Part shown: positions 13,488 through 31,809 of the stretch, piece after piece
How the letters are laid out: each line of letters begins with the position of its first letter
Position numbering within the stretch: the stretch's first letter is position 1
Source of the DNA: Eubacteriales bacterium
Lineage (GTDB): Bacteria; Bacillota; Clostridia; Oscillospirales; CAG-382
Assembly (NCBI GenBank): GCA_045544855.1
Contig: JAZPZV010000042.1
Span: 16,399 to 80,398, forward strand
Reading direction: 5' to 3'
Length of the DNA: 64,000 bases
Made by a program: the position numbers and the translations under genes
The notes under the pieces: model-generated
What the model was told of the DNA's origin: nothing
The model's input: the letters and a program-made list of their open reading frames with translations, nothing else
Databases searched by the model: none

Positions 13488-14324
13488 TTATACCAATCTT
13501 TGTCCCAAGGCCTTGGGAGTTTCCCCTGCGAAGATGGCGTTTGCGTTCTCCACGTAATCGGCGAAGGTGAGGTCTCTGTCTCTGTGGAGGTGGCGGGGAG
13601 GCTTTTGCCCCAGCTCGTACATCCACACGCCTTCATAACCCACAGCAAGCAAGCCTTGGTACAGCTCCTGCCAGTTGATATCCCCTTCCCCGGGGAGCCA
13701 ATGCTTTTCGTCCTTGAAATCGTAGTCGGAGATATGCACCGTGAGAATGCGGTGTCCCACCGTTTTCAAAAAGTCGCTATGCGTTCCCTGCAACAGGTGG
13801 TTCACGTCAAAGCAGACACGGAGTCTTTCATCGGCGGCAATCAGCTCTGCCAGCTCCTCTGCGGTGTTCCCCAAGCAGGAGCGGGGCAGGTCCTCCACGG
13901 CAATGACGGCACCGTAGCTTTCTGCGATCTCCGCAAGCTTTGCAAGGGACTCCTTGGCGCAGGCAAGCTTTGCCGGGCGTTCCTCCTCTGCAATGGGTTC
14001 TCCGCTGGGGTGTACCACGAAGCGCTTCACACCGATGGCGGTAAAGGCGGCGATCTTCCGGGTAAAGTACGCCAGAACGTTTTTACGCACCTCCTCGTCG
14101 GTGGAGGAAACGTCCGCAAAGGTAAAGGGATAGTAGGGCAGGTGGCAGGACCAAAGCTCCACGCCGTATGCGTCCGCATTGGCCTTCAACTCCTCCGGAT
14201 CCAAGGCATCCAGATAGCCCTTCTCCATAGAGATCTCCACGGCCTCGACGCCCGCCGCAGCAAGGTTTTTAAAGGCTTCCTCATCGGGAGTGAAGCCGCA
14301 GGTAGAAAGTCCGATCTTCAACAT
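13488..14324 (-). CDS. Sugar-phosphate isomerase/epimerase (xylose-isomerase-like TIM barrel)
   Basis: RBS GGAGG 6 nt before ATG 14324 (MLKIGLSTCGF..). Family blocks GVEAVEIS, RFVVHPSG, AVEDLPR, CFDVNH and VHISDYD. Lies 12 nt upstream of the phosphoesterase gene. Confidence 0.8.
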   Translation of the reverse strand: MLKIGLSTCGFTPDEEAFKNLAAAGVEAVEISMEKGYLDALDPEELKANADAYGVELWSCHLPYYPFTFADVSSTDEEVRKNVLAYFTRKIAAFTAIGVKRFVVHPSGEPIAEEERPAKLACAKESLAKLAEIAESYGAVIAVEDLPRSCLGNTAEELAELIAADERLRVCFDVNHLLQGTHSDFLKTVGHRILTVHISDYDFKDEKHWLPGEGDINWQELYQGLLAVGYEGVWMYELGQKPPRHLHRDRDLTFADYVENANAIFAGETPKALGQRLV

Positions 14325-14325
14325 A

Positions 14326-14736
14326 TCAGTCCTCCAGTTTTTCACAAAGATCCTTCAGCCCTTCCGGGTTGAGGATGGGGTTGGCGAAGGGCTTCATGGC
14401 CAAGGCCAACAGTCTCATAGGGTTGTCGTCGGCGGCTACGCGGTTGGAATCCAGCTTGCCGCAGACGGTACAGCGGTGGATCAACGCCCACTCCCCGTTC
14501 TTCCGCACCCAAACGCCGATGGGCTCCATTTTGCCGTGGCAATCGGAGGCGCGGTCACCCGGTTCCTCGTCCAGATGGACGCTGGTGAGGCAGTAGGGGC
14601 AATGGTTACGGTGGTCGCTGCCCGCCCCCTCGGGAACCACCGTCTGCCCGCAATTCTTGCAGGTGAAGGGGTCGATACAGGGGTGGGTGCGGTAAAAATT
14701 CTTGTCGTATTTCTTACGCTTATTCTCGCGGTTCAT
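14326..14736 (-). CDS. RNHCP-domain zinc-ribbon protein
   Basis: CKNCG..DHRNHCPYCLTSVH..CHG..CTVCG. RBS GGAGGTG before ATG 14736. The stop abuts the TIM-barrel start. Confidence 0.75.
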   Translation of the reverse strand: MNRENKRKKYDKNFYRTHPCIDPFTCKNCGQTVVPEGAGSDHRNHCPYCLTSVHLDEEPGDRASDCHGKMEPIGVWVRKNGEWALIHRCTVCGKLDSNRVAADDNPMRLLALAMKPFANPILNPEGLKDLCEKLED

Positions 14737-15085
14737 AAGCACCTCCGAAATCTCCCGTGCTACCCGTTGCACCGGTCATTTTGGCGATCTCCTCCAGCCG
14801 CTCGATGGGGAACGGCGGGTTGGCCAAAGGCTTGGAGGCCACGGACAGCAGCTTCATGGGGTTGTCCCCGCACATGACGGGGCGGGTCTCCATCTCCCCG
14901 CAGGATTTACAGCGCAAGATCAAGTCCCAGTTTCCGTCGGGCTTTACCCACACGCTCACAGGCTCCATCACGCCCCCGCATTCGTACGCAGGGTCTTCGT
15001 CGGTATGAACGGCGGACAGGCAGCCCGGGCAATGGTCGCCTGAATATTCTGTGCCGCAGGTGCGGCAGTGAAGGGTCTCTTCCAT
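14720..15085 (-). CDS. RNHCP-domain zinc-ribbon protein (paralog, motif GDHCPGCLSAVH)
   Basis: CRTCG..GDHCPGCLSAVH..CKSCG. Aligns along its length with the downstream paralog and overlaps it by 17 nt. Confidence 0.75.
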   Translation of the reverse strand: MEETLHCRTCGTEYSGDHCPGCLSAVHTDEDPAYECGGVMEPVSVWVKPDGNWDLILRCKSCGEMETRPVMCGDNPMKLLSVASKPLANPPFPIERLEEIAKMTGATGSTGDFGGAYEPRE

Positions 15086-15104
15086 AAAAAGGCTCCTTTT
15101 GGGT

Positions 15105-15290
15105 GTAATTAAGGGGACGCTTAAGAACCTTTCTTTTTGAAGAAAGGTTCTTAAGAATCTCCAAAGAAACTCAATGCCGAAAACTGTCGTTTTCGGAAAA
15201 TGATTATTTTTTTCTTCACAATGTGCAGGGTTCTTAGGGGGATCATCCCCCTAAGCAGGGTTTCTTAAGGGGCGGCGCCCCTTAAGCGTA
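15105..15290. repeat. Intergenic repeat family, copy 2
   Basis: AAGAACCTTTCTT..AAGAAAGGTTCTT hairpin, core 15173-15196, and CTTAGGGGGATCATCCCCCTAAG and CTTAAGGGGCGGCGCCCCTTAAG palindromes. Confidence 0.7.
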
Positions 15291-15295
15291 CTCCG

Positions 15296-16060
15296 TTATT
15301 CTCCGTCCTTGACGCTGGCGCCGGTGGAATAGTTGATGGTGATCCCGGGCTGGACGTTGTAGATAAACACGTTGAAGCAAACGCCGTCCCCCTCGTCCTC
15401 CACGGAGTAGGCCTCCATCTGTACCCCCCTGCAAAGCAGGTCGTTGCCTACAAAAAGAGGGGTTACACGGTAGGCCACGTGATTTCCGGTCTCCTTGATG
15501 TAGTCCGCCACCATGTTCTCAAAGGGAAGCATCCCGTCCACGTTAAAATAGCGGGTTCCTGTGATGAGATTGCTCTTGTTGGCGTTTTCCGCAGACAACT
15601 GCCAGCCGATAAGGTGACAGCGGTTGTATAAGTACTTTTGGGGGATGTTATCGTACTTCGCCTGGATCCACCCGGAGGGATACACACTGCTGATGCTTCC
15701 CCGCTCCTCGTCCTTGGCGGGCATGGTCTCAAGCCCCAGGGAGGCGATCACCACGCCGCATCTGCCCAGAGCGTCCAAAGGTGCATAGGATTCGTAGGCA
15801 ACGGGGGTCAGCTCTTCCTCCGTAAAGTTTGGCACGTTCCCCTCGATGGTGACGTAGGGCGATCCCTTGTACGGCGGGATCGCCGTTAGCGTTCCTGCGT
15901 CCTCAACGCTGACTTCCGATTGGGTAGCACTGCTTTCGCTTAACGGATCGGAAAACAGATCGGTGATCTGCTCCAATTCCTCGATGCACCCTGTGAAGGC
16001 CAGCAGAATGGCCAGCAAAAGGGCGGGTAAGAAAAGTCGTTTGGTATACTTCACGTTCAT
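15296..16060 (-). CDS. Secreted lipoprotein DNA/RNA non-specific endonuclease
   Basis: Lipobox LLAFTGC. The block NRCHLIGWQLSAENANKSNLITGTRYFNVDGMLPFE is typical of the EndA/NucM-type family. RBS GGAGG. Confidence 0.8.
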   Translation of the reverse strand: MNVKYTKRLFLPALLLAILLAFTGCIEELEQITDLFSDPLSESSATQSEVSVEDAGTLTAIPPYKGSPYVTIEGNVPNFTEEELTPVAYESYAPLDALGRCGVVIASLGLETMPAKDEERGSISSVYPSGWIQAKYDNIPQKYLYNRCHLIGWQLSAENANKSNLITGTRYFNVDGMLPFENMVADYIKETGNHVAYRVTPLFVGNDLLCRGVQMEAYSVEDEGDGVCFNVFIYNVQPGITINYSTGASVKDGE

Positions 16061-16440
16061 TTCCTCCTATAAGTCTCTACGGTGATCTTCTCGTGGGAAG
16101 AGCCTGCAAGCTCCTCCGTCTTTTCTTTGCGGAAGGCGGCCTTTATCGCAGAAAGGTCCAAAAAGACGTCCCCGGGGTAACGGCGGTTCCAATGGCAGAG
16201 AATGATCGCCTCCGCCGTCTCAAGATCATAAGCGCCGTCCTCCACCAAGTAGTAGCCTGCGCCGTTGCAGTGGGAGAGCGGCTTCCCCCAAGGGAACAGC
16301 TTTGCGGTGTAGGGAGTGACCCACAAGGGGGATTCCCCCACCAGGGTTTGGATATAGTCGTTCAGAATGCGGTCACGGCTCTGGCGTTTGCCGCAAAAGA
16401 GCATACCGCCGCTTTCGTCCACACAAAAGATCAAGGTCAT
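16057..16440 (-). CDS. Small cytoplasmic protein, function unknown (N-terminus reminiscent of DHFR/RibD-C fold)
   Basis: 127 aa, RBS GGAGG, no signal peptide. Its stop overlaps the nuclease start (ATGA). MTLIFCVDESGGMLFCGKRQSRD resembles the first strand-loop of DHFR-like proteins; this is a weak call. Confidence 0.55.
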   Translation of the reverse strand: MTLIFCVDESGGMLFCGKRQSRDRILNDYIQTLVGESPLWVTPYTAKLFPWGKPLSHCNGAGYYLVEDGAYDLETAEAIILCHWNRRYPGDVFLDLSAIKAAFRKEKTEELAGSSHEKITVETYRRK

Positions 16441-16557
16441 AGTGAAGGCCTCCTTATGTGAATATGATACCTTGTCGGAGGGAATTTGTCAAGAGTTCTT
16501 GCTTTTTTCCTGTTTTTATTGTATGATATAAAGGAAAAAGAAAGGAACGTGATTTTT

Positions 16558-19173
16558 TTGAAAAGATTTTTCTGTCTGATCTTGACCTTAACGCTGTTAC
16601 TCTGCGCCTGCGGAGAAACTGCAGAAAACACCTCCTCCCTTCCCGGTGCGGAAAGCGTGGAGGAATCCTCCAAGGAAGAAAGTGAGGTCAGCAAGGTGTT
16701 TGAAGAGAACGAGCTGATCGGTGAGATCGATGCTTGTCTGACGGGGAAAGCTCCCGACCGTACCATGCTTGCCAAAAATCTGTTTGCCGATGCAAGCTAC
16801 ACCTTTAACACCAACACCAACGAAAGCTATACCGACCCCGATATGAAGAAGCTGAACGACGGCAACAAGCGGGATCTGTTTGACAAATACAGCTGGGTAG
16901 GCTTTACGGGAGGGGTACATCCCTCCGTCACCTTTGATCTGGGTGAGGGGGAGCACGCGTTGGCAGACGTGGAGATCAATATGCTCCGCCAGGTGGCTTA
17001 CGGCATTGAGCTTCCCGACAGCGTGATCCTTTCCGTTTCCGAGGACGGAAAGACCTACGTGAACATCTCTACCCTGAAATCCCCCGCCGACGTGGGGGAA
17101 GGCAACGTGTTCGTTTACCGCTTCGCTCTGCCGAAAACCGTTTCCGCAAGATACGTCCGTGTCACCTTCCGCAGAAAGGCCCAAAACTTCCTGTTCTTGG
17201 ACGAGATCACCGGGTACGAGTACTGCGAAGACGGTACCATTGATCCCTCCACGGGAAACTCCACCGCAGACGTGGAGAAGGTGTTTGATTACTACAAATA
17301 CGATCTGAGTAAGGACGAATACGTGGTGATCAGCCCCTCCGACAGCGATTACAACACCCGTCAGAACCTGGCTCTTTTGGAGTGGGCTAAGGTGGATGCC
17401 ACCCATTTCGATCCTTTTGATCCGTCTCACACCGCCTCCAACACTGACATGGCAGGCCTTGCCAAACTAATCGACGGGAAGAGGGCTTCCAAGGCGACCT
17501 ATTCCGACCCCGCCTTCGCTCATTTCTACCGCGGGTGCGGACGGCACGTAGTGGTGGATCTTGGCAACGAGATGGCCGTTGACTCCGTAGAAGCGGAGTT
17601 CTTGAACGAAGTGAGCGTTGGCGTGGCAGTGCCACCCGCGGTGATGGTCAGCGTCAGCAATGACGGCGAGAATTGGATCACCACCTACGGCGGGTATACC
17701 CTGGAGTACGGCAGCAATGAAAAATGCCTGTACAACGTTGACGCTACCTTCAAGGAGGCCTACCGTGCACGGTATATCCGTGTATCCTTCGTCACCGTGC
17801 CGGAAAACACCGTTTCCTCCAACGTATATCTTTCCGAGATCGAAGTCTGGGGTAAGAAGAACGCGGAAAACGTGCCCGAGGCAAAGGACGATCCCTCCAT
17901 CATCATGGGACGTTACCCCGATATTGGGAGGATCGGCTGTAACAACGTGCTTTTGGCCGCGGTGAACGGCAACGTCAAAGAGAATCCCACCCGCAATCTG
18001 GACGTTGCAGGGGCCTTGAAGCATCAAGCCTATCTGGACGAGCAGGGCAACATTCAGGATACCTTCTACGACTCCGTGCTGTTCTGTCCCTCCAACAGCT
18101 TCCCCTTTACCGGCAACGTGAAGGCCAACGCAGACCTTTACCGTGCCGATATGTTTACCGAAGGCTTTAACCTTTACGCCTGGGATGAGGCGGCAAGACA
18201 AGTACAGGAAGCTATTCCCGGTACGGCAAACGCCACCGTGTGGCTGAACCTGATGTGCCCCGACAACGACGACACCTGCCCCGACGTGGACGGTGACGGC
18301 AAGGCCGAAGATCTTTCCACTCCGGAAGGACGGCTGAGCTATCTGAAGTATCAGGTGGACGAATATCTGAAGGCCTGGGAGGAAGCGGGTTTTGAGCATA
18401 TCACCCTGTTGGGCTTCTATTGGAACAACGAGACCATTCACAGAAACGATCTTGCCCTGGAAAAGGCTGTGATCGGCGGGATCAACGCCTATATTCACGA
18501 AAAAGGCTACAAGAGCTTCTGGTGCCCCTACTACTCCGCTTACGGCATTTGGATGTGGCAGGAGCTGGGCTTTGACGTGGCTTGCCTCCAGCCCAACTAT
18601 ATGTTCTACGTCACCGATCCCACCCGTCTGAAGGCTACTGCGGACATAGCAAAGATCTACGGGATGTGCGTGGAGATCGAGATCGAGGTGGTCAGCGGTG
18701 AAGGCTCCGTGGGCAAATACCGTGAATACCTCCGTGAGGGCTTCGACAGCGGCTATATGCACTCCGTGAAGCTGTACTACGTCAGCGGCACGCCCAGCGC
18801 CATCGCCTCCGCATACGATTCCGAGGATCCTTTGGCACATTCCGTTTACGAGGATACCTACCTGTATGCCAAGGAAAAGCTGGATGAATCGTACAACAAG
18901 GGAGCCTCCGTTTCCATGGACGGCGTGAAGGATCTTACCTTGCAGGTGGTCCACGGGAAAAAGGTGGACTTTGACCTGGCTTTGCCCGAGGGGGTGAAGG
19001 CGAGGATCATGGAAAGCACGGTATACGGCACCTTCCGACTGGATCTTTCCGGAGAGGGTCAATACCGTGCCATGAAGGGCTTCCGCGGGGAGGATCGGAT
19101 TATGCTGGAGATCTACGACCCCGTAGGAAACAGGAAAACCGTCACCATTGCGGTGACGGTTACGGAAGAATAA
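16558..19173 (+). CDS. Surface lipoprotein: discoidin domains + DUF4855-like domain (paralog of 209-3313)
   Basis: Lipobox LTLLLCAC. Segments end FLFLDEITGYE and VYLSEIEVWG. Shared blocks LLGFYWNNE, WCPYYSAYG, QPNYMF and CVEIEIE. Start taken as TTG 16558 (GAAAGGAA about 10 nt upstream). GTG 16549 or TTG 16486 are possible alternatives. Confidence 0.8.
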   Translation: MKRFFCLILTLTLLLCACGETAENTSSLPGAESVEESSKEESEVSKVFEENELIGEIDACLTGKAPDRTMLAKNLFADASYTFNTNTNESYTDPDMKKLNDGNKRDLFDKYSWVGFTGGVHPSVTFDLGEGEHALADVEINMLRQVAYGIELPDSVILSVSEDGKTYVNISTLKSPADVGEGNVFVYRFALPKTVSARYVRVTFRRKAQNFLFLDEITGYEYCEDGTIDPSTGNSTADVEKVFDYYKYDLSKDEYVVISPSDSDYNTRQNLALLEWAKVDATHFDPFDPSHTASNTDMAGLAKLIDGKRASKATYSDPAFAHFYRGCGRHVVVDLGNEMAVDSVEAEFLNEVSVGVAVPPAVMVSVSNDGENWITTYGGYTLEYGSNEKCLYNVDATFKEAYRARYIRVSFVTVPENTVSSNVYLSEIEVWGKKNAENVPEAKDDPSIIMGRYPDIGRIGCNNVLLAAVNGNVKENPTRNLDVAGALKHQAYLDEQGNIQDTFYDSVLFCPSNSFPFTGNVKANADLYRADMFTEGFNLYAWDEAARQVQEAIPGTANATVWLNLMCPDNDDTCPDVDGDGKAEDLSTPEGRLSYLKYQVDEYLKAWEEAGFEHITLLGFYWNNETIHRNDLALEKAVIGGINAYIHEKGYKSFWCPYYSAYGIWMWQELGFDVACLQPNYMFYVTDPTRLKATADIAKIYGMCVEIEIEVVSGEGSVGKYREYLREGFDSGYMHSVKLYYVSGTPSAIASAYDSEDPLAHSVYEDTYLYAKEKLDESYNKGASVSMDGVKDLTLQVVHGKKVDFDLALPEGVKARIMESTVYGTFRLDLSGEGQYRAMKGFRGEDRIMLEIYDPVGNRKTVTIAVTVTEE

Positions 19174-19174
19174 G

Positions 19175-20056
19175 TTATCCGTGTATAGAAACGCCTTGCG
19201 AAAGCAGGGCGTTTTTTCCTTGCAACAGTGTTTCTGCGGAGGGGATCCATTCTGCCTGTGAACAGTCGTCCATCCCCGCCGCCTTTGCCTTGGCACCGCC
19301 GTAAGGGTGATAGGGCAACAGCTCCACACCTTCACAGTTTTGCAGGCTGTGATACAGCTTGGCAACAGCGGTATAGTGGGCACCATTGGCGTTTACACCG
19401 TTTACCAGAATACAGCGTAAACGGGACTTGCCGCCCAGAGAATCCACCATACGGAGATTTTCCAAAATATGCTTGTTGGAGACCCCCGTATACGCCAAAT
19501 GCCTTGCGTCGTCGGTGTCCTTCACGTCCCAAAGGAACAGATCCACCAAGGGGATGGCTTTTTGTAGCAGGGCGGAGGAAACGTACCCACAGGTCTCCAC
19601 GGCTGTGGAAATGCCGTTTTCCTTGCAAAGCTTCAAAAGCTCCAAGACCTCTTCCCCCTGCAAAAAGGGCTCGCCCCCGGAAAGGGTGACCCCGCCTCCG
19701 TTTTGGTAGAAGGGCGCATCCCGTTGGATCACCTCCAAAAGCTGTGCAGGGGTCATGTCCTTACCGCACAGGGACAGCGCCCCGGTGGGACAAAGAGAGG
19801 TGCAACTCCCGCAGGCAACACAGCTTTCCCGCCGCAGGGTATGCATCTCTTCAAAGCTATGTACCCCTTGGGGGCATTCTTCGCAGGCACGGCAGGAAAT
19901 ACATTTTTTCGTTTCAAACAAAAGCTGTGAAGCGGGACTTTGGGTCTCGGGGTTATGGCACCACGGGCAATGCAAGGGACAGCCCTTGAAGAAGATCACC
20001 GTCCGCACCCCGGGCCCGTCGTGCATACAAAACCTTTGGATCTCCGCTACCTTCAT
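19175..20056 (-). CDS. Glycyl-radical enzyme activating protein (radical SAM, with two auxiliary ferredoxin-type clusters)
   Basis: CPLHCPWCHNPE (CxxxCxxC) plus CISCRACEEC and CVACGSCTSLCP. The start overlaps the GRE stop (ATGA). Confidence 0.9.
   Translation of the reverse strand: MKVAEIQRFCMHDGPGVRTVIFFKGCPLHCPWCHNPETQSPASQLLFETKKCISCRACEECPQGVHSFEEMHTLRRESCVACGSCTSLCPTGALSLCGKDMTPAQLLEVIQRDAPFYQNGGGVTLSGGEPFLQGEEVLELLKLCKENGISTAVETCGYVSSALLQKAIPLVDLFLWDVKDTDDARHLAYTGVSNKHILENLRMVDSLGGKSRLRCILVNGVNANGAHYTAVAKLYHSLQNCEGVELLPYHPYGGAKAKAAGMDDCSQAEWIPSAETLLQGKNALLSQGVSIHG
19191..19220 (+). terminator. Terminator for 16558-19173, embedded in the 3' end of the convergent activase gene
   Basis: AACGCCTTGC-GAAA-GCAGGGCGTT followed by TTTTT. 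Confidence 0.6.
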
Positions 20057-22167
20057 GAATGCTCCTCCGTTTGGGCGATGATCATATCCTGCCAGCCCCG
20101 ATCCAGGGTCACGAAACGGGCGTTCCAGCCGGAGACCCGCACAGAAAGGGTGGAATAGTCCTCGGGACGCGCCTGTGCCGCTCTCAGAATGGCCCCATCC
20201 GCCACGTCAAGTTGGAGGAAGAAGCCGCCCAAAGTCATAAAGCCCTGCATCAGCGCGGTGATGGCGGAAAGACCGTCCTCCCCCTTTACGGCGGAGGGCA
20301 ACAGCTTGAGATCCAAGGCCGCTCCGGTGGTCATTTCCGTAAGGTCTATTTTGCAATAAGAGCGGATCACGGCGGTGGCACCCTCCCTGTCCGTCCCGGG
20401 AGTGGGAGAGCAGTTTCCTGCCAGCACCTCCCCCGCCCTTCTGCCGTAGGAGGTGGCCATGCGGTGGGGCGCCCATTCCAACTGTCTGCCGAAGGTGCTG
20501 ATCCCGGGAGGGATACCGTAGCCGCATCTCCCCTCCTGCCCGCGGCAGATGGCGGCAAAGGACTTTGCCAGGGAGACGGCGATCTCATCACATTCGTCGT
20601 TATCGTTGCCGAAATAGGCGTAGCGGCTTTGCACGTACCGCCGTAACACCTCTTCCCCCTCCCAGTCCTTTGCCAGAATGGCAAGAAGCTGCGGCAGGGT
20701 GCATTTTTGCTCTTCAAAAACCAGCGTGCGGATGGCGTACAAGCTGTTCACCGTGTCCGCAAAGCCCCCGAAGTGAGGGGATCGGATGTTGTAAACGGCA
20801 CCGCCGCGGAAATAAGGAAGCCCTGCGGAAATGCAACCGCCCTCAAACAGGGAGATCACCGTAGAGGGTGTCCAATCGCACCAGCGCCATCTGCCGTGGT
20901 CGTCCTTCTCCGGCGTTTCACAGCAATGACGCTCCACGATCCCCGCCACGGCGGTCTCCAGATCCGTCACATACGCTTGATAGAGCTCTTCGTAAGAGGC
21001 AAGATCTGCCCCCGATCCCAAAGTCTGCTGTAATATCTGTAACCCGTCGAAGGGGTCGTACCCGAAATTGGTCTTTCCGGGGATCTGCACCTCCCAACAG
21101 CCATCGTTGGCAAACTTCCAGATTTCCTCCTTTGGATAGCCGTAGGCCAAAAGGCTTTGATAGATCAGCTCCTCGTTGTACACCGCCAGAACGCCGCCCC
21201 CGTAGCGGATGACCTCTGCCATGCGGCGAAGAAGCTTTTGAGGCGTGCCCTTGTGCAACCGCAAGGTGGTGGGGAAATCTCCGATCCCCAATTCCTCGAT
21301 GATATCCAGCACCAGATAGGTGACGTGGTTGGTGATGTCCTTCCCTTCCCCGTCCCTGCCACCGATGACAAGATTCTGATAATGCTGGGCATCGCCGCTA
21401 CCGTAGTTGCCCCCGCAGATCCATTCGCACCCCTTGATGAAGAAGTGGGCAAGAAGCTCCCTTGCTTCCTCTAAGGTAAGTCTGCCCTCTGCCAGGTCGC
21501 GGTCCAAAAAGTCTCCCAAAAGCCAGTCAATCCTGCCAATGCCCGGCCAATTGCCGCAAAGCCGCTGGAAGGCGAAGGCAAACCATATACTCTGCAAGGC
21601 CTCCCGAAAGGTTGCGGGCACGCCGAAGGGCACCTTGGAAAGGACTTGACGGTTCTCTTCGTATCCCGCCTCCCTAAGGGCCTCCAGATATCTGCCGTGC
21701 CAAATGGCAAAGCTATCCAGGCAGGAAAGACAGCTTTGCAAAAAGGGCTCTCTGTCCGTGCCTCTGTAAGCCTCCAGAGACGCCAGAACGTCCAAACGGA
21801 TGCCGCCCATTCCACGTTTTACCACCGTCTCAAAATCCGCGGTAAGGTGGCTGACGGCGTAAAACACCGACTTGCCGCCAAAGGAAGCGGGGACGTGGTG
21901 GTGAATGGCTTCTCCCAGGGTGGCACTGCCGTTGAGCTTTTCCCCCTCGCAGATCCGCAAGGGCGCGTGAAGGCAGATCTCACGGATGGCGAGATCGTAC
22001 TTTTCAAGGTCGTTCAGCTCCGCAAAGCCTTCAATATGATCCAAAGAAACGGCAGGAACTGCCGCCGTCTCCCTGCCGTAACGGCAATGAAGGGAATCGT
22101 ATGCGAACTTGCGGGTAGATTCCGACAGGCGAACAGGGCGTTTGCCGAAGGCAGAATAGAATTCCAT
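20053..22167 (-). CDS. Glycyl-radical enzyme, PFL2/dehydratase-like, substrate unknown (short, 704 aa)
   Basis: C-terminal glycyl loop LSVRVSGWNARFVTL (RVxG). Mid-protein Cys loop NDGCWEVQIPG (Cys-x-Glu). Confidence 0.85.
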   Translation of the reverse strand: MEFYSAFGKRPVRLSESTRKFAYDSLHCRYGRETAAVPAVSLDHIEGFAELNDLEKYDLAIREICLHAPLRICEGEKLNGSATLGEAIHHHVPASFGGKSVFYAVSHLTADFETVVKRGMGGIRLDVLASLEAYRGTDREPFLQSCLSCLDSFAIWHGRYLEALREAGYEENRQVLSKVPFGVPATFREALQSIWFAFAFQRLCGNWPGIGRIDWLLGDFLDRDLAEGRLTLEEARELLAHFFIKGCEWICGGNYGSGDAQHYQNLVIGGRDGEGKDITNHVTYLVLDIIEELGIGDFPTTLRLHKGTPQKLLRRMAEVIRYGGGVLAVYNEELIYQSLLAYGYPKEEIWKFANDGCWEVQIPGKTNFGYDPFDGLQILQQTLGSGADLASYEELYQAYVTDLETAVAGIVERHCCETPEKDDHGRWRWCDWTPSTVISLFEGGCISAGLPYFRGGAVYNIRSPHFGGFADTVNSLYAIRTLVFEEQKCTLPQLLAILAKDWEGEEVLRRYVQSRYAYFGNDNDECDEIAVSLAKSFAAICRGQEGRCGYGIPPGISTFGRQLEWAPHRMATSYGRRAGEVLAGNCSPTPGTDREGATAVIRSYCKIDLTEMTTGAALDLKLLPSAVKGEDGLSAITALMQGFMTLGGFFLQLDVADGAILRAAQARPEDYSTLSVRVSGWNARFVTLDRGWQDMIIAQTEEHS

Positions 22168-22230
22168 AAAAGAACCTCAAAATAAGCAAAGGGCCATCCC
22201 GCAGGACAGCCCTCTTTACAGACGATAAAA

Positions 22231-23295
22231 TTAACCCAGGATAACTTCCTTGCCGGACTCGGAGGAATCGTACATAGCCTGCATCATCTCTGCCGTCTTG
22301 ATAACGGTGTCGATGTGAGAAGGAAGCTTCTCGCCGGTCTTGATGCAGTTGATAAAGCCGTCGATCTCTTTCTGGAACATGGGCTCATCCTTGTACTTGG
22401 GCTTGAAGTTCACCAAGCTGCCGCAGGAGGTGGTGTAAACGGTGAAGTCGCCGCCGTAGTTCAGTCTTGCGCCGCCCTTGGTGCCCAGGAAGTCGATATA
22501 GCTCTCGTTAATGCCCAGGTTCTGTGCCCAAGCGCCGTTGAAGGTGATTGTGGGGCCGTCGGTGCGAACGAAGCCGGTTACAAAGTCGTCAACGTCGTAG
22601 GTACCGTTCAGATCCTTGGTATCCTCAGCCCACATGCCTTCGTATACGTAGTTGGGCATATCCACGCCCAGCTTGCTGTATGCCTTTGCGGAAACGGAGG
22701 TAGCCTTGGGGTCGCCGGTGCAGTACATAACGATATCCAGATAGTGAACGCCCCAGTCGATGAGAACGCCGCCGCCGGAGATCTCCTTGGTGGTGAACGC
22801 ACCGCCGAGACCGGGGATGGAACGCTGAGAACGGAAGCAAACGTAAACGTGGTAGATCTCGCCCAGGTCGCCGGACTGAATGATCTCACGGAGACGGTTG
22901 ACAGCGGAGTTGAAGCGGTTGACCACGCCGATGTTCAGAACCTTGCCGGACTCGTGCTGAGCCTGCTGCATTGCCAGAGCCTCGGAATAAACGCGGGCCG
23001 CGGGCTTTTCGCAAAGAACGTTCTTGCCTGCCTTCAGAGCGTCGATGGTGATGAAAGCGTGCATCTTGTTGGGAGTACAAACGGAAACTGCCTCGATCTC
23101 GGGATCGTTCAGAACAACGTGGTAATCCTCAACTGCGGTGCCGCAACCGTACTTCTCTACGCACTTCTCTGCCTTGTGGAGCAGGATGTCGCAGAAATAC
23201 TTGATCTCAACCTCCTCGTTCTTCATATAAGCGGGGATGTGAGCACTGTTGGCGATCGTACCGCAACCGATGATCGCAATCTTCATTTTTGCCAT
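22231..23295 (-). CDS. Gfo/Idh/MocA-family NAD(P)-dependent oxidoreductase
   Basis: RBS GGAGG before ATG 23295. MKIAIIGCGTIANSAHIPAY Rossmann start and the CEKPAA motif. First gene of the oxidoreductase-GRE-activase operon. Confidence 0.85.
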   Translation of the reverse strand: MAKMKIAIIGCGTIANSAHIPAYMKNEEVEIKYFCDILLHKAEKCVEKYGCGTAVEDYHVVLNDPEIEAVSVCTPNKMHAFITIDALKAGKNVLCEKPAARVYSEALAMQQAQHESGKVLNIGVVNRFNSAVNRLREIIQSGDLGEIYHVYVCFRSQRSIPGLGGAFTTKEISGGGVLIDWGVHYLDIVMYCTGDPKATSVSAKAYSKLGVDMPNYVYEGMWAEDTKDLNGTYDVDDFVTGFVRTDGPTITFNGAWAQNLGINESYIDFLGTKGGARLNYGGDFTVYTTSCGSLVNFKPKYKDEPMFQKEIDGFINCIKTGEKLPSHIDTVIKTAEMMQAMYDSSESGKEVILG

Positions 23296-23356
23296 AGTGG
23301 GTAACCTCCGAAAATAATTGAATTTCATGATTTTTATTGGTTTTCACCTTATTTGC

Positions 23357-23385
23357 ATATTACCATATTCTATCCCGTTTTGCAA
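23357..23385 (-). promoter_or_regulatory. Sigma-A-type promoter candidate for the oxidoreductase-GRE-activase operon
   Basis: The minus strand reads TTGCAA-17 nt-TAATAT. Confidence 0.55.
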
Positions 23386-23417
23386 GAGATTTTGAAAAAA
23401 ATTTCAAAAAGCTCTTG
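23383..23417. promoter_or_regulatory. Imperfect 35-bp palindrome spanning both divergent -35 boxes (candidate operator)
   Basis: CAAGAGATTTTGAAA-AAAA-TTTCAAAAAGCTCTTG. Confidence 0.4.
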
Positions 23418-23443
23418 ACAAATTTACCATGCTCTGCTATAAT
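23415..23443 (+). promoter_or_regulatory. Consensus sigma-A promoter
   Basis: TTGACA-17 nt-TATAAT. Confidence 0.7.
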
Positions 23444-23772: not shown

Positions 23773-26304
23773 ATGAAAACAGCATTTTCCACCCTCGCTT
23801 GCCCCGGCTTTGATTTTAAAGACATTACCACCATGGCCGCCGACCTGGGTTTTGACGGCATTGAGGTGCGTGGTCTGGGCATCGATCTCATCGACCGTCA
23901 TTCCAAGCCCTTTGCGGCGGAAAACATCCCCGCCACTGCGGCGAAGCTGCGTTCTTTGCGTTTGAAGATCTCCTGCTTCTCCTCCGGCGTGGTACTCAGC
24001 GACGGGACGAGAAGAGAGCAGAACCTGGAAGAGGCCAAGGAATACATCCGTGCCGCAAAGGCGCTGGGTACCAAATATATCCGCGTGCTGGGTGAAGCCA
24101 CCCCCGCTCCCGAAAGGGAGATCGACGACGAAGAAGTGTTCGCACAGCTTTCCGCCATTCTTCCCTTTGCCGAGGAGGCAGGAGTCACCGTGTTGGTGGA
24201 GACCAACGGTGCTTACTGCGACACTGCCCGCCTTGCTTCCGTATTAAACCGCTGTCACAGCGAGTCCGTGGGCGCTTTGTGGGACATTCACCATCCCTAC
24301 CGCCATCTGGGTGAATCCCCCGAGAAGACGGTACAAAATCTGGGCAGATACATCCGCTACGTCCACGTGAAGGATTCTGTGAAGGAAGAGGGCAAGGTCT
24401 CCTACCGTATGATGGGAGACGGCGATATGCCTCTGGACGACATTATGAACGCTCTGCGTTCCATCAATTTCGAGGGTTACCTCTCTTTGGAGTGGGTGAA
24501 GACCTGGATGCCCGAGCTGTTCGATGCGGGCATCGTGTTCCCTCAGTATATGCACTTCATGTCCCGCTATCTGGGCAAGACCCCCACGGGTCACGCTCTC
24601 CAGGTGGACAAGCGGGGTGCAGGTCAGTATCCCTGGCCCAAGGAGACCTTGATCGATCTCACCTTCCCCCAGCTTCTTGACCACATTTGTGATTGCTTCC
24701 CCGATCAGTACGCCTTCCGCTACACCACCCACGATTACACCCGCACCTATCCCCAGTTCCGCGAGGACGTGGACAGATTTGCCCGTGCTTTGATGGCCTT
24801 GGGAGTGCGCAAGGGCGACCACGTGGCGGTGTGGGCCACCAACGTGCCCGCATGGTATCTCACCTTCTGGGCGGCTACCAAGATCGGCGCTGTTTTGGTG
24901 ACGGTGAACACCGCTTACAAGATCTACGAGGCGGAGTATTTGCTCCGTCAGTCCGACACCCACACCTTGGTGATGGTGGACGGCTACAAGGGCACGGACT
25001 ACAAGGAGATCGTGAACAAGCTGGTTCCCGAGCTTGCCACCCACGAACCGGGCAAGCCCTTGTACAGCCAACGTCTCCCCTTCTTGCGCAACGTGATCAC
25101 CTGCGAGTCCTCCATGCCCGGTGCCCTCACCATGGAGCAGGCCATGGAGTACGCAGACAAGACTCCCGTGGAGGAGCTGTACCGCCGTGCCTCCCGCATT
25201 GACAAGCACGACGTTTGCAATATGCAGTACACCTCCGGCACCACCGGATTCCCCAAGGGCGTTATGCTCACCCACTACAACGTGATCAACAACGGCAAGG
25301 CCATCGGCGACTGTATGGATCTTTCCACCGCGGACCGCATGATGATCCAGGTGCCTATGTTCCATTGCTTCGGCATGGTATTGGCCATGACCGCCTCCGT
25401 GACCCACGGGGTGACCATGTCCCCCATTCCCGCCTTCTCTCCCAGAAGAGGCTTGGATTGCATCAACCGCGAAAAGATCACCTGCTTCCACGGCGTGCCC
25501 ACCATGTTCATCGCCATGCTGGGGCACGAGGATTTTGACAAAACCGACTTCTCCCATATGCGTACCGGCATCATGGCGGGCTCACCCTGCCCTGTGAAGG
25601 TGATGGAAGAGGTCATCAATAAGATGCACATGAGCGAGATCTGCATCACCTACGGGCAGACGGAGGCTTCTCCTGCCACCACCATGTCCAAGACCACGGA
25701 TTCCATTGAGACACGTGTGAACACGGTGGGAAGCGCCATCTTCGGTGTGGAGTGCAAGATCATCGATCCCGAAACGGGAGAAGAAGTACCCGACGGCGTG
25801 GACGGTGAGTTCTGCGCCCGTGGCTACAACATCATGAAGGGGTACTACAAGATGCCCCAGGCAACTGCCGCTGCCATTGACAGCGAGGGTTGGCTTCACT
25901 CCGGGGATCTGCTTCGCAAGCTGCCCGACGGCAACTTCAAGGTGACGGGGCGTATCAAAGATATGATCATCCGCGGGGGTGAGAATCTTTACCCCAAGGA
26001 GATCGAGGACTTTATCTACACCCATCCCAAGGTGAGCGACGTGCAGGTCATCGGCGTGCCCGACAAGCAGTACGGCGAGGAGGCCATGGCTTGCATCATC
26101 ATCAAGCCCGGCGAGACACTCACCGAGGAGGAGATCCGCACCTACTGCATGGAGAACATGGCCAAGCACAAGGTGCCGAAGTATTTTGATTTCGTGGATT
26201 CCTTCCCCATGAATGCGGCGGGAAAGATCTTGAAGTACAAGATGCGGGAGGCGGCTGTGGAGAAGCTTGGCTTACAGGCCGCCGCCAAGATCGAGACGGC
26301 TTAA
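23773..26304 (+). CDS. Fusion protein: xylose-isomerase-like TIM barrel (N-terminal, ~290 aa) + ANL-superfamily acyl/aryl-CoA (AMP-forming) ligase (C-terminal, ~550 aa)
   Basis: N-terminal blocks GFDGIEVRG, YIRVLGE, VLVETN, WDIHH, VHVKD and LSLEW. C-terminal blocks YTSGTTGFPKGVMLTH, GEFCARGYNIMKGYY, WLHSGD and GRIKDMIIRGGENLYPKEIE. One uninterrupted frame. Confidence 0.85.
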   Translation: MKTAFSTLACPGFDFKDITTMAADLGFDGIEVRGLGIDLIDRHSKPFAAENIPATAAKLRSLRLKISCFSSGVVLSDGTRREQNLEEAKEYIRAAKALGTKYIRVLGEATPAPEREIDDEEVFAQLSAILPFAEEAGVTVLVETNGAYCDTARLASVLNRCHSESVGALWDIHHPYRHLGESPEKTVQNLGRYIRYVHVKDSVKEEGKVSYRMMGDGDMPLDDIMNALRSINFEGYLSLEWVKTWMPELFDAGIVFPQYMHFMSRYLGKTPTGHALQVDKRGAGQYPWPKETLIDLTFPQLLDHICDCFPDQYAFRYTTHDYTRTYPQFREDVDRFARALMALGVRKGDHVAVWATNVPAWYLTFWAATKIGAVLVTVNTAYKIYEAEYLLRQSDTHTLVMVDGYKGTDYKEIVNKLVPELATHEPGKPLYSQRLPFLRNVITCESSMPGALTMEQAMEYADKTPVEELYRRASRIDKHDVCNMQYTSGTTGFPKGVMLTHYNVINNGKAIGDCMDLSTADRMMIQVPMFHCFGMVLAMTASVTHGVTMSPIPAFSPRRGLDCINREKITCFHGVPTMFIAMLGHEDFDKTDFSHMRTGIMAGSPCPVKVMEEVINKMHMSEICITYGQTEASPATTMSKTTDSIETRVNTVGSAIFGVECKIIDPETGEEVPDGVDGEFCARGYNIMKGYYKMPQATAAAIDSEGWLHSGDLLRKLPDGNFKVTGRIKDMIIRGGENLYPKEIEDFIYTHPKVSDVQVIGVPDKQYGEEAMACIIIKPGETLTEEEIRTYCMENMAKHKVPKYFDFVDSFPMNAAGKILKYKMREAAVEKLGLQAAAKIETA

Positions 26305-28847: not shown

Positions 28848-29061
28848 GACCGTTTTGGGCGACCTGCTGTAAAGCAGGTCGCCCAACGAAATTTGCCCAT
28901 TGGGGCAAGTGAAATCGCTTCGCGGTGAAATATTTGCTTCGCAAATGTGAAATGTTCGCTTCGCGAACACGGGCAAATTTCATTTCACATCGAACGAAGT
29001 GAGATATTTCACAATGTGCGTTAGCACATTATTTCACGTTTTGCCCGGCAAAACATTTCAC
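28848..29061. repeat. 12-bp-stem hairpin followed by an array of mini-hairpins punctuated by GTGAAAT (x3) and then ATTTCAC (x4)
   Basis: GGGCGACCTGCT-GTAA-AGCAGGTCGCCC. GTGAAAT at 28909, 28925 and 28947. ATTTCAC at 28982, 29006, 29031 and 29055. Small palindromes lie between them (ATTTGC-TTC-GCAAAT, GTTCGC-TTC-GCGAAC, AATGTGC-GTTA-GCACATT, GTTTTGCC-CG-GGCAAAAC). Confidence 0.7.
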
Positions 29062-29234: not shown

Positions 29235-29984
29235 TTACTTCGCGGTGAATTCGGAAACGAATGCCCAACCGGGAGTCTGCATAACCACCTTCACGTAACG
29301 ACCGGTAACGTCGCACTCGATGGTTGCGGGAGCGTTTGCAACGGTCTCATCGGTGGTGGGAACCACGGAGCCTACGGAATACCAGTTCTCGCCGTCCTCG
29401 GAAACCAGGAACTCAACATTGGTGGGAGCGGCGATACCACTGCCAAGGAACACGCTGCCGGTGTAAAGGGTCAGTTCGGAGAGCTGGTAGCTCTGCTCCA
29501 GGTCAACAATGAACCAACCGCCGTTGTTCTCAGCGTAGTCAGGGCAGTTCAGGTGGAAGCCCATCCAAGCGGCGTCGGAGTATGCGGCGTCGTCAGCGGC
29601 GATCACACCATCGGTAAGATCGTTTGCATCATCGGGGTAAGCGATGTTCGCATTTTCATCCCAACCGTAATTTGCCTCCTTACCGCCCTGGCGGTACAGG
29701 AGAGAACGGGTGTAGGTCTTGCCCTCAGCAACGTTAGCGCCCTCGGTGGGGATAGCGTCGGGGTTCTTTTCGAACTCGGGCTCAGCGGGCTCTTCGGAGG
29801 ATTCAGCCTCGGGCTCGGAGGACTCGGGTTCAGCCTCGGAAGAGGTAGCGGGAGCTTCGGAAGAAGTAGCGGGCGCTTCGGAGGAAGCTTCGGGAGCGGA
29901 GGAGGTCTCTTCCTCACCGCAGGAAGCCAGCAGGCAGCAGGTAGCTACCAGCAGAAGGGCCAGCAAAAGGGAAATCTTTTTCAT
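29235..29984 (-). CDS. Small lipoprotein: acidic S/E/P linker + single discoidin-like domain (paralog 1 of 3)
   Basis: MKKISLLLALLLVATCCLLASCGEEETSS lipobox, then KNPDAIPTEGANVAEGKTYT, LTDGV, and RYVKVV..VSEFTAK. Confidence 0.8.
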   Translation of the reverse strand: MKKISLLLALLLVATCCLLASCGEEETSSAPEASSEAPATSSEAPATSSEAEPESSEPEAESSEEPAEPEFEKNPDAIPTEGANVAEGKTYTRSLLYRQGGKEANYGWDENANIAYPDDANDLTDGVIAADDAAYSDAAWMGFHLNCPDYAENNGGWFIVDLEQSYQLSELTLYTGSVFLGSGIAAPTNVEFLVSEDGENWYSVGSVVPTTDETVANAPATIECDVTGRYVKVVMQTPGWAFVSEFTAK

Positions 29985-30026
29985 GATCATCTTTCCTTTT
30001 CTTTTGTTTTTTGTTTTGTTTAACCC

Positions 30027-30055
30027 ATTTTATCACACTTTTGCGCCTTTTTCAA
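30027..30055 (-). promoter_or_regulatory. Promoter candidate for paralog 1
   Basis: The minus strand reads TTGAAA-17 nt-TAAAAT. Confidence 0.5.
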
Positions 30056-30065
30056 GAGGTTCTTG

Positions 30066-30098
30066 CAAAAAAACAAGAGACCTCGAAAGATCTCTTGT
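30066..30098 (-). terminator. Terminator of paralog 2
   Basis: The minus strand reads ACAAGAGA..TCTCTTGT followed by T7. Confidence 0.7.
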
Positions 30099-30112
30099 TC
30101 TCGGCACAAAAA

Positions 30113-30859
30113 TTACTTAATTTCGATCTCGCCCATGAAGCACCAACCGTAGGAGATCACGCGGATCTCAACGTAACGGCCGGTCACGTCCATCTCGGAA
30201 ACCAGAGTGTGGGTAACGTTGTCTTCCAGCTCGTCAACCTTGGTGGTGAGCACGGAAGCGGAATACCAGGTCTCGCCATCCTCGGAAACCAGAACCTCTA
30301 CGGTGTGGGGAGCGTTGATACCGCTGGCACCGTCTCTCAGAGAAACGATAGTAACTTCGCTGATCTCATAGCTCTGGCCCAGGTCGAACTGAACGTAGCC
30401 GTAGCCGCGCTCGGCCTGAATGGGAGTCAGCTGGTTGAGTGCCATCCAGCACGCAGCGCTGTACTTATCTTCGTTGGTGGGGATCACACCGTCGGTGAGC
30501 TCAAAGTTATCGTCGGGGTAGGATACGGGATAGCTCTCGTCGTAGCCCCAGGTCTCGGTGCTCATGTGGAACTGCTCGGAGATGGTGTACTCCTTGCCTG
30601 CGGCAACGTTAGCGCCTTCGGTGGGAATAGCGTCGGGGTTCTTTTCGTACTCGGGCTCAGCGGGCTCTTCGGAGGACTCAGCCTCGGGCTCGGAGGACTC
30701 GGGTTCAGCCTCGGAGGAGGCAGCGGGAGCTTCGGAAGAAGCAGCGGGTGCCTGGGAGGAAGCTTCGGGAGCGGAAGAGGTCTCTTCTTCGCCGCAGGAA
30801 GCCAGCATGCAGCAGGTAGCTACCATCAGCAGGGCCAGCAGAAATGCGATCTTTTTCAT
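30113..30859 (-). CDS. Small lipoprotein: acidic linker + discoidin-like domain (paralog 2 of 3)
   Basis: MKKIAFLLALLMVATCCMLASCGEEETSS. The first ~95 aa are nearly identical to paralog 3. Ends RYVEIRV..FMGEIEIK. Confidence 0.8.
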   Translation of the reverse strand: MKKIAFLLALLMVATCCMLASCGEEETSSAPEASSQAPAASSEAPAASSEAEPESSEPEAESSEEPAEPEYEKNPDAIPTEGANVAAGKEYTISEQFHMSTETWGYDESYPVSYPDDNFELTDGVIPTNEDKYSAACWMALNQLTPIQAERGYGYVQFDLGQSYEISEVTIVSLRDGASGINAPHTVEVLVSEDGETWYSASVLTTKVDELEDNVTHTLVSEMDVTGRYVEIRVISYGWCFMGEIEIK

Positions 30860-30899
30860 GTTTGTTTTTCCTTTTCTTGTTTTTATTTTTGTTTAGCCT

Positions 30900-30928
30900 A
30901 TTCTATCACACTTTTTTTCTTTTTGCAA
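30900..30928 (-). promoter_or_regulatory. Promoter candidate for paralog 2
   Basis: The minus strand reads TTGCAA-17 nt-TAGAAT. Confidence 0.5.
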
Positions 30929-30940
30929 GGGTTTCTTGAC

Positions 30941-30970
30941 AAAAAACAAGAGACCGATGAAGGTCTCTTG
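30941..30970 (-). terminator. Terminator of paralog 3
   Basis: The minus strand reads CAAGAGACC..GGTCTCTTG followed by T6. Confidence 0.7.
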
Positions 30971-30999
30971 TCCTTTGTGTGTTTTTTTGGAATCGGAAA

Positions 31000-31758
31000 T
31001 TACTTAATTTCGATCTCGCCCATGAAGCCCCAGGTGTGGGAGGTCACGCGGATCTCAACGTAACGGCCGGTAACGTCCATCTCTGCAACCAGAGCGTGAA
31101 CGGCGTTGTCCTCCAGACCTTCCAGCTCGTTCATCAGGGACAGAGTAGCAGCGGAGTACCAGGTCTCGTTATCCTCGGAAACCAGGATCTCAATGGTGTG
31201 AGGGCAGGTGATACCGGGGCCGGTTTCTTTCAGGGAGTGAATGGTCACTTCGCTGATCTCATAACTCTGGCCCAGGTCGAACTGAACGTATGCATAGCCG
31301 CGCTCGGTCTGAGCGGGAGTGCCCTGGTTGAATGCCATCCAGCCTGCTTCTCTGTAATCATTCAAGGGGATCTGACCATCGGTCAGCTCAAAGCCCTCAT
31401 CGGGGTAAGAAGGAGCGGCATTCTCGTCCCAGCCCCAGCCTACGTCAGCACCGCCCATGCGGAACTGCTCGGAGATGGTGTACTCCTTGCCTGCGGCAAC
31501 GTTAGCGCCTTCGGTGGGAATAGCATCGGGGTTCTTCTCGTACTCGGGCTCGGTGGAAACTTCTTCCTCGGAAGACTCGGGAGCTTCCTCAGAGGATTCA
31601 GCCTCGGGCTCGGAGGAGGCAGCGGGAGCTTCGGAGGAAGTAGCGGGAGCTTCGGAAGATACTTCGGGAGCGGAAGAGGTCTCTTCCTCGCCGCAGGAAG
31701 CCAGCATGCAGCAGGTAGCTACCATCAGCAGGGCCAGCAGAAATGCGATCTTTTTCAT
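31000..31758 (-). CDS. Small lipoprotein: acidic linker + discoidin-like domain (paralog 3 of 3)
   Basis: Start taken at MKKIAFLL (ATG 31758). Same leader and linker as paralog 2. Ends RYVEIRV..FMGEIEIK. Confidence 0.8.
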   Translation of the reverse strand: MKKIAFLLALLMVATCCMLASCGEEETSSAPEVSSEAPATSSEAPAASSEPEAESSEEAPESSEEEVSTEPEYEKNPDAIPTEGANVAAGKEYTISEQFRMGGADVGWGWDENAAPSYPDEGFELTDGQIPLNDYREAGWMAFNQGTPAQTERGYAYVQFDLGQSYEISEVTIHSLKETGPGITCPHTIEILVSEDNETWYSAATLSLMNELEGLEDNAVHALVAEMDVTGRYVEIRVTSHTWGFMGEIEIK

Positions 31759-31809
31759 GTTTTCTTTCCTTTTCTTGTTTTTATTTTCGTGCATTTATAC
31801 ACAAGCGGT

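Follow-up and report, generated by a model that had tools for sequence, protein, structure and literature searches.

Glycyl-radical enzymes (GREs) carry out chemistry for which the anoxic gut has no oxygen-free alternative: the formation of trimethylamine, H2S, p-cresol and skatole, and the use of hydroxyproline and anhydro-sugars. Each GRE clade newly assigned so far has uncovered a new metabolic route, and entire clades are still without validation according to a 2026 review of the superfamily (PMC13450708). The closest described relatives of the GRE studied here are the glycerol dehydratase (GD) of C. butyricum (1r8w) and 1,2-propanediol dehydratase (PD; R. inulinivorans 5i2a/5i2g; 9rco), then HypD (6vxc), CutC (5fau) and the 1,5-anhydrohexitol-6-phosphate C-O lyases YbiW/PflD (8id7, 8id0). 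It is encoded in a 64,000-nucleotide stretch of DNA from a Eubacteriales bacterium (contig JAZPZV010000042.1, positions 16,399 to 80,398), the whole of which is called the window below. Its gene is followed by that of a radical-SAM activase and preceded by that of a Gfo/Idh/MocA oxidoreductase, whose closest described relative is DgpA, the C-glycoside 3''-oxidoreductase of gut strain PUE (7xr9).

An earlier note on this DNA had read the three genes as one operon with its own promoter, possibly acting on a sugar- or cyclitol-derived diol. The three co-directional minus-strand open reading frames (ORFs) are present as it described them, and the features of the locus are:

22231-23295, minus strand: Gfo/Idh/MocA oxidoreductase, 354 amino acids (aa); the ORF could start at 23328
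20053-22167, minus strand: GRE, 704 aa, PFL-like and Gly_radical domains (Pfam)
19175-20056, minus strand: radical-SAM GRE activase, 293 aa
22215-22188, minus strand: terminator-like hairpin between the oxidoreductase stop and the GRE start
19137-19161, minus strand: terminator-like hairpin directly 3' of the activase stop
23357-23396, minus strand: promoter-like region 5' of the oxidoreductase (consensus matches only)

We favour, with moderate confidence, a different arrangement of two separate units lying side by side, namely a GRE-activase cassette and a DgpA-like oxidoreductase with a promoter and a terminator of its own. The kind of enzyme represented by the GRE and its activase is known; within it they fall into an eliminase-like clade that is uncharacterised and whose conserved pocket is distinctive.

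Family membership and length of the GRE

The GRE matched the Pfam families PF02901 (2e-81) and PF01228 (3e-20) and combines the features of the superfamily: a PFL-like barrel, a C-terminal Gly_radical domain with RVxG, a catalytic Cys, and an adjacent cognate activase. The Gly loop LSVRVSGWNARF (RVSGW, residues 677-681; in fuller form SVRVSGWNARF) and the Cys loop NDGCWEV were both found as previously reported. Curated models of known function gave scores far below their cut-offs. The PFL2/glycerol-dehydratase subfamily model TIGR01774 scored 272.8 bits against a cut-off of 678.2, and the function-specific NCBIfam equivalogs 155-253 bits against cut-offs of 1000-1150, including those for HypD (NF043068, 253 against 1100) and CutC (TIGR04394, 213 against 1050); the YbiW/PflD model PRK09983 gave 222 bits against 1109. 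Identity to every solved GRE was 22-25%, and no GRE of known function groups with the protein.

Among solved structures the best match was 1r8w (E 1.5e-67), followed by 5i2a and then, within a narrow score band, by HypD, CutC and PflD. An AlphaFold model built with 50 family sequences (pLDDT 87.5, pTM 0.90) returned the propanediol and glycerol dehydratases first in Foldseek and HypD and CutC next, at TM values of 0.83-0.85. That GD (1r8w) and PD (5i2a/5i2g/9rco) lead in sequence, profile and structural searches alike is one argument for regarding the GRE as a diverged B12-independent dehydratase of glycerol, 1,2-propanediol or another small diol, working outside a microcompartment. It is offset by an identity of only about 25% and by HypD, CutC and PflD scoring nearly as high; the pocket residues that bear on this reading are given below. 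YbiW and PflD share with the window GRE the PFL2 type, the Cys-X-Glu (CXE) motif and substrates derived from carbohydrates, and PflD is relatively short too (765-776 aa), but they are only 21-23% identical to it and ranked below the dehydratases in every search.

The GRE is genuinely short. A mis-called start is ruled out by a TGA in frame four codons ahead of ATG 22167, by a GAGG ribosome-binding site in front of that ATG and by an N-terminus shared with homologues; of the 120 closest of these, most are 704-711 aa long, with a few fragments and longer calls, and their N-terminus is conserved. In a profile alignment, GRE residues ~45-84 (…PLRICEGEKLNGSATL) fell on glycerol dehydratase 38-77 (…PITIRDQELIVGSLT) and residues 98-99 on 154-156, and 9rco gave the same pattern. 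Because of this alignment, the shortness is best read as an internal loss from the helical N-terminal region, about 60 residues long and situated between an ELIVG-like motif and the GH motif, together with small loop deletions, and not as a truncated N-terminus. The conserved GRE dimer interface is located in these N-terminal helices (PMC13450708); the loss may affect dimerisation.

Both genes of the cassette are under purifying selection (dN/dS 0.11-0.15) and their motifs are intact, so a pseudogene reading was rejected. The cassette is intact and selectively maintained, and from these dN/dS values both proteins are presumably expressed.

A large clade in uncultured gut genomes

Relatives of the GRE form a dense plateau in the protein database, about 60% identical and about 709 aa long, annotated as 'hypothetical protein' and derived from metagenome-assembled genomes (MAGs) of uncultured Clostridia, Oscillospiraceae and Ruminococcaceae. 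They occurred in 381 stretches of GTDB species genomes (ruminant, human and bird gut MAGs), and more distant members in more than 517 metagenome contigs. In a representative library at 50% identity the clade proper comprises about 19 clusters (38-53% identity, 684-741 aa), one member coming from a Planctomycetaceae MAG; beyond the clade, similarity falls to 36% or less. The same list holds many further uncharacterised GRE clades of 690-750 aa, so shortness alone is not unusual.

None of the characterised GREs in the 2026 superfamily review (PMC13450708) matches the clade, and a literature search on the clade, on DgpA together with GREs and on recent GRE discoveries returned nothing relevant. 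The GRE is a member of a large, uncharacterised clade of compact enzymes that looks isofunctional and is spread over hundreds of genomes from uncultured gut organisms and anaerobes.

The active site

The catalytic set of the GRE consists of Cys357, Glu359, His107 and Gly680 (in RVSGW), and every clade member, even at 38% identity, retains C-W-E, His107 and RVSGW. His107 aligns with GD His164 and PD His166; its equivalence to HypD His160 comes from the G/S-H motif, as the pairwise alignment with HypD begins only at query residue 124. Protonation of the leaving hydroxyl, or tuning of the Glu, has been proposed as the role of this His (PMC13450708, PMC7077986), and the CXE motif (here Cys357/Glu359) is common to GRE eliminases and isomerases (PMC13450708). 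The segments that the clade conserves, to as low as 38% identity, are:

S/N-His107-x-Thr; Gly-Asn-Trp207-Pro/Ser-Gly; Arg212; Asp214
Ser257-Gly-Asp259-Ala-Gln-His262-Tyr263-Gln-Asn; Asp-Gly-Cys357-Trp-Glu359
Thr366, Phe368, Tyr370, Asp374; Gly-x-Ser557-Thr-Phe559-Gly-Arg561; Arg569; Arg-Val-Ser-Gly680-Trp

At the substrate-contact positions the clade differs from every solved enzyme. Roles of pocket residues were taken from PMC7077986 and PMC13450708, and positions were assigned by alignment:

GD His281 / HypD Asp278: Pro208 in the clade
GD Ser282: Gly209 in the clade
GD Phe333 / HypD Ser334: Ser257 in the clade
HypD Asp339: His262 in the clade
GD Tyr640: Ser557 in the clade
GD Asp447: a variable position in the clade
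GD Ser642 / HypD Thr645: Phe559 in the clade

Two residues on, an invariant Arg lies on the same face of strand beta8. Part of the GD contact-residue list (H281, S282, D447, Y640, F333) reportedly goes back to O'Brien 2004. The Asp216 that binds trimethylamine in CutC would presumably fall at the beta1 position held by Pro208 in the window GRE, a placement made outside the alignment. HypD and CutC, both from gut anaerobes like the window GRE, share its fold and CXE, and HypD Trp277 and Ser334 align with Trp207 and Ser257, whereas the essential HypD residues Asp278 and Asp339 (PMC7077986) are replaced.

Aligned in this way, the pocket appears polar and rich in aromatic residues. Since the contact residues are swapped for a clade-specific invariant set (Trp207-Pro-Gly, Ser257, Asp259, His262, Tyr263, Trp358, Ser557, Phe559, Arg561), the substrate is predicted to be none of glycerol, propanediol, hydroxyproline and choline. 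Such strict conservation of active-site residues further points to a single substrate throughout the clade.

The same replacements make a diverged diol dehydratase improbable. The equivalents of GD His164, Cys433, Glu435 and Tyr339 (Tyr263 here) are conserved, and genes for Fe-ADH, GDPD and a GH95 fucosidase are occasional neighbours, both of which would suit such an enzyme. The activase, too, has the two-cluster ferredoxin insert of the GD and PD systems. Nevertheless H281, S282, D447, Y640 and F333 are all replaced, and apart from the variable D447 position the replacements do not vary within the clade. The aldehyde or alcohol dehydrogenase and bacterial microcompartment (BMC) expected in a GD or PD context were found neither in the window nor at the Pfam-annotated syntenic locus L085, and none recurs among 160 loci. 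The absence of BMC shell genes noted earlier held in a tblastn search of the window with a PduA query (best E 0.57).

The CXE motif, which the earlier note had linked to eliminases and decarboxylases, argues together with the conserved His for eliminase-type chemistry. We infer a ketyl-radical 1,2-elimination, or an isomerase variant of it, whose substrate would be small, polar and hydroxylated and different from those known for GREs. In a mechanism modelled on GRE 1,2-eliminases and isomerases, the activase would install the radical on Gly680, from which it would move to Cys357. The Cys357 thiyl radical would then take a hydrogen from the carbinol carbon of the substrate, and deprotonation of the hydroxyl by Glu359 would give a ketyl radical. 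A beta leaving group, most likely C-O, would be lost with the help of His107 before Cys357 gives the hydrogen back.

The conserved cassette

The GRE stop and the activase start overlap as ATGA (TCATGAAGG), as had been noticed before, and a GGAGGAG Shine-Dalgarno sequence for the activase lies within the 3' end of the GRE gene. The activase carries CPLHCPWC (CX3CX2C, residues 26-33) and a ferredoxin-like di-cluster insert, matched Radical_SAM/Fer4_12 with such an insert in Pfam, and scored 307.8 bits with TIGR02494, well above the cut-off of 174.

The survey of gene neighbourhoods, by ORF calling and clustering, covered 81 loci from genomes and 80 from metagenomes, the latter with more distant members. 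The gene for the activase followed the GRE directly in 56 of the 81 genome loci (present in 65) and in half of the metagenome loci (40/80). A divergent AraC-family regulator stood directly before the GRE in 42/81 genome loci (present in 50), and ahead of it in 11-15 of the 80 metagenome loci. No other partner recurred in more than 8/81 genome or 10/80 metagenome loci. Genes for MATE, GDPD, Fe-ADH, 2-hydroxyacid dehydrogenase, GH95/GH127/GH28 and sulfatase were considered as a conserved pathway partner and rejected as sporadic, and together these neighbours give no convergent clue to the substrate. The conserved module in most genomes is therefore a divergent AraC regulator, the GRE and its activase, with no other fixed partner. 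The window clade does without the usual AraC regulator at the GRE. In contrast to YbiW and PflD, the GRE has no phosphotransferase system, kinase or aldolase in its context, save for a FruK-like kinase in one distant clade.

A stand-alone module of this kind would also fit another CXE reaction class, for example a decarboxylase whose product is excreted. MATE genes lie within three genes of the GRE in 8-9/81 loci, and the invariant Arg561 and Arg569 could bind a carboxylate. Those MATE genes are, however, only 27-30% identical to the MATE gene of the window and hence not its orthologues, the dehydratase-type His is conserved, and decarboxylases were the weakest PFL2-type matches (155-173 bits with NCBIfam models, lowest in the profile search, Foldseek E 1e-30). 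We regard this reading as very improbable.

Two other arrangements were seen among the family loci. In the distant P0128 clade, found in an abundant gut organism (124 blocks of the public-assembly index contain its GRE sub-cluster), the order at L179-L182 (5895-11043) is a YlbJ-like Gate membrane protein, activase, GRE and a FruK-like PfkB kinase, with nucleoside ABC permeases, a pyrimidine-nucleoside phosphorylase and a uridine-kinase-like gene upstream; neither the FruK-like kinase nor the YlbJ-like protein was found beside the GRE in any other locus checked. At L062 (3953-5992) and L081 (4315-6312) a second, different short GRE of 665-680 aa, uncharacterised, lies directly beside the family GRE. 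Its Cys loop is TACC, with two adjacent Cys as in PFL, its Gly loop is RLYGF, and with it stand a separate activase and genes for a D-2-hydroxyacid dehydrogenase, a GDPD phosphodiesterase and a DeoR regulator.

The upstream oxidoreductase

Three Gfo/Idh/MocA domains were found by Pfam in the oxidoreductase. Among solved structures it comes closest to DgpA (7xr9; E 1.1e-54), with 43% identity across 276 aligned columns, and to DgpA1 (9m3d); the best structure outside the DgpA type had an E value of 2e-24, and inositol dehydrogenases were far weaker. The enzyme, a sugar/cyclitol-type dehydrogenase in the earlier note, is DgpA-like and not IolG-like. As DgpA and DgpA1 are its nearest solved relatives, we class it as a putative glycoside or sugar 3-oxidoreductase; it keeps the Gfo/Idh/MocA fold and the EKP and GGGxLID motifs of DgpA. 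It differs from DgpA in lacking a DgpB/DgpC-type partner. The genes that flank the locus are:

23773-26304, plus strand: fusion of a xylose-isomerase-like TIM barrel and an acyl-CoA ligase, 843 aa, divergent from the oxidoreductase
16486-19173, plus strand: DUF4855/F5-F8-type-C protein, convergent with the GRE-activase unit
13488-14345, minus strand: second xylose-isomerase-like TIM barrel

The flanking TIM barrels that had been described earlier are thus present, one of them as the N-terminal domain of a fusion protein. They weakly resemble MJ1311 and tagatose epimerase, and as DgpB/C-like partners they were rejected, no DgpB/C match being found among solved structures.

Among about 160 family loci, the oxidoreductase stood upstream of the GRE only in the window and in L001-L003 and L085/L086, whose GREs are at least 91% identical to that of the window in four cases and 73% identical in L002. 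Orthologues of the oxidoreductase are widespread, at 71-90% identity in many Clostridia. Loci from four lineages, with oxidoreductases 76-86% identical to that of the window, were inspected, and none has a GRE near the oxidoreductase gene. L171/172 have LysR-oxidoreductase and then an unrelated convergent gene, L173/174 the oxidoreductase alone, and in L175/176 and L177 it stands divergently to the TIM-barrel/acyl-CoA-ligase fusion also seen in the window. This fusion, the recurrent neighbour of the oxidoreductase and a further difference from DgpA, joins AP_endonuc_2 to complete AMP-binding and AMP-binding_C domains; it was also found at L002, L003, L085, L024/L040/L051 and L175-L177 and is conserved in many Clostridia. 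As repeatedly divergent neighbours, the fusion and the oxidoreductase may form a pair.

In every orthologue inspected, with or without a GRE, a strong hairpin and T-run (-22 to -26 kcal/mol) lie directly 3' of the oxidoreductase gene, from which we conclude that the gene is normally monocistronic; in the window it is probably an independent gene. Synonymous divergence (dS) also separates it from the cassette, that of GRE and activase being about 4-fold higher in the same genome pairs:

Window against L003/L085: GRE 0.41, activase 0.49-0.53, oxidoreductase 0.12
Window against L002: GRE 1.24, activase 1.42, oxidoreductase 0.32

L002 is a mosaic when compared with the window (oxidoreductase 97% identical, TIM-ligase fusion 94%, LysR 91%, MATE 84%, GRE 73%, activase 70%), and the pattern suggests that recombination at a fixed site has replaced the cassette. 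The history of the cassette is separate from that of the neighbouring genes.

Transcription of the locus

The hairpin at 22215-22188 (-) has a 12-bp GC-rich stem followed by the T-rich GCTTATTTTG (-23.7 kcal/mol) and is kept in all five related loci (L001-L003, L085/86); in L002 the stem is one nucleotide stronger and the T-run reads TTTTTT. It is probably the oxidoreductase's own terminator, and possibly a leaky one. The hairpin at 19137-19161 would mark the end of the GRE-activase unit, facing the convergent DUF4855 gene. Promoter-like sites were found 5' of the oxidoreductase (TTCAAA-18-TAGAAT by scan, TTGCAA-17-TAATAT by eye), and the scan found none for the GRE on the minus strand between 22168 and 23328; an Rfam scan gave no regulatory RNA ahead of the GRE, its single hit being the Gut-1 element described below. 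The three-gene operon of the earlier note is thus divided by a conserved hairpin, with promoter-like sites in front of the oxidoreductase only and with adjacency limited to the window clade instead of being family-wide.

In the window the T-tract of this hairpin is interrupted, and to judge from the signals found, the GRE is probably transcribed by partial read-through. Such read-through leaves room for a functional link between oxidoreductase and GRE that is specific to this lineage.

The strongest form of this link would be a single pathway in the window lineage, with oxidoreductase, GRE and activase acting on the same molecule. The DgpA-like enzyme would act at C3 of a sugar, anhydro-sugar or cyclitol that the GRE dehydrates or ring-opens, and the hairpin would be a leaky terminator or an attenuator setting the stoichiometry. 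The genes run in the same direction with 63 nt between them, no promoter was found for the GRE by itself, the polar, aromatic-rich pocket would suit a carbohydrate, and sugar-acting GREs exist in YbiW and PflD, which use 1,5-anhydrohexitol phosphates (PMC13450708). We nevertheless hold a single pathway to be rather unlikely. About 155 other family loci lack the adjacency, highly conserved oxidoreductase orthologues occur where there is no GRE, the terminator hairpin is conserved, and dS is discordant. Because the active-site signature of the GRE is invariant in lineages with and without the oxidoreductase, the substrate would be the same everywhere and the oxidoreductase not needed. The same lines of evidence speak against the oxidoreductase as a pathway partner in general. 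With that partnership unsupported, the proposed sugar- or cyclitol-derived diol stands on a lineage-specific neighbour only; it is possible but unproven.

Several points weigh against two separate units and against the chemistry proposed for the first of them. If the GRE has no promoter, efficient termination would silence the cassette, so that some co-transcription with the oxidoreductase is implied and could reflect a functional link in this lineage. The adjacency, kept in five loci, has outlived the replacement of the cassette in L002, and the position could be under selection. Codon bias, if the oxidoreductase gene is highly expressed, could account in part for its lower dS in place of a separate history. 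At L081, Gfo/Idh/MocA and TIM-barrel genes again lie less than 3 kb from the GRE. As to the chemistry, the eliminase mechanism is drawn from motifs only, CXE occurring also in decarboxylases and isomerases, and the pocket assignments depend on alignment to solved enzymes.

It is also conceivable, if unlikely, that the clade catalyses an undescribed reaction on an unphosphorylated carbohydrate-derived molecule and that, in the window lineage, this reaction is wired by read-through to the DgpA-like enzyme and the TIM-barrel/CoA-ligase fusion. Radical dehydration or ring-opening of a sugar, an anhydro-sugar, a polyol or a 3-keto-glycoside would be examples. If this were true, the reaction would be part of a new anaerobic route for the breakdown of plant glycosides and sugars in ruminant and human gut Oscillospirales.

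Two separate units remain the arrangement that we prefer. The first would be the translationally coupled cassette with the eliminase-like chemistry set out above, and the second a DgpA-like gene beside which the divergent TIM-barrel/acyl-CoA-ligase fusion recurs in other Clostridia; in the window lineage the cassette would have come to lie behind the oxidoreductase, without the usual AraC regulator and probably transcribed by read-through.

Other features of the window

MATE exporter and LysR regulator genes are among the flanking genes identified by Pfam, and a perfect TTGACA-17-TATAAT lies at 23415-23443 (+), ahead of the fusion gene. An Rfam Gut-1 RNA (RF01706) was found at 28884-28958 (+), with 65 bits against a gathering score of 50, just upstream of the 5' end of the LysR gene and intergenic before F5/8-type-C genes. 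The latter are three tandem paralogues of about 250 aa (F5/8-type-C, discoidin; 29235-31794, minus strand), a trio that is syntenic in L085 and L171. Two large DUF4855 and F5/8-type-C proteins are encoded at 209-3313 (+) and 16486-19173 (+), and with the trio they are probably a secreted carbohydrate-binding or glycan-acting set.

The region 14290-16440 (syntenic with L085 15739-17850), which has the DUF4855 gene on one side and the second TIM barrel on the other, holds a DNA/RNA non-specific endonuclease (15296-16060), a 127-aa ORF and two RNHCP-domain proteins. The largest ORF of the window encodes 4117 aa (42828-55181, minus strand). The ORFs at 32820-34943 (707 aa) and 31867-32817 were considered as a second GRE and activase and proved to be RecG and Dus.

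Significance

The clade is large and concentrated in gut Clostridia, uncultured and from ruminant and human sources, and its active site is both tightly conserved and distinctive; for these reasons it probably marks one abundant substrate. The analysis cautions against reading the function of the GRE off a neighbouring dehydrogenase. The AraC companion offers a practical handle, in that inducer screening could reveal the substrate, and the cassette is a well-defined target, worthwhile if not extraordinary, for substrate discovery in gut Oscillospirales.

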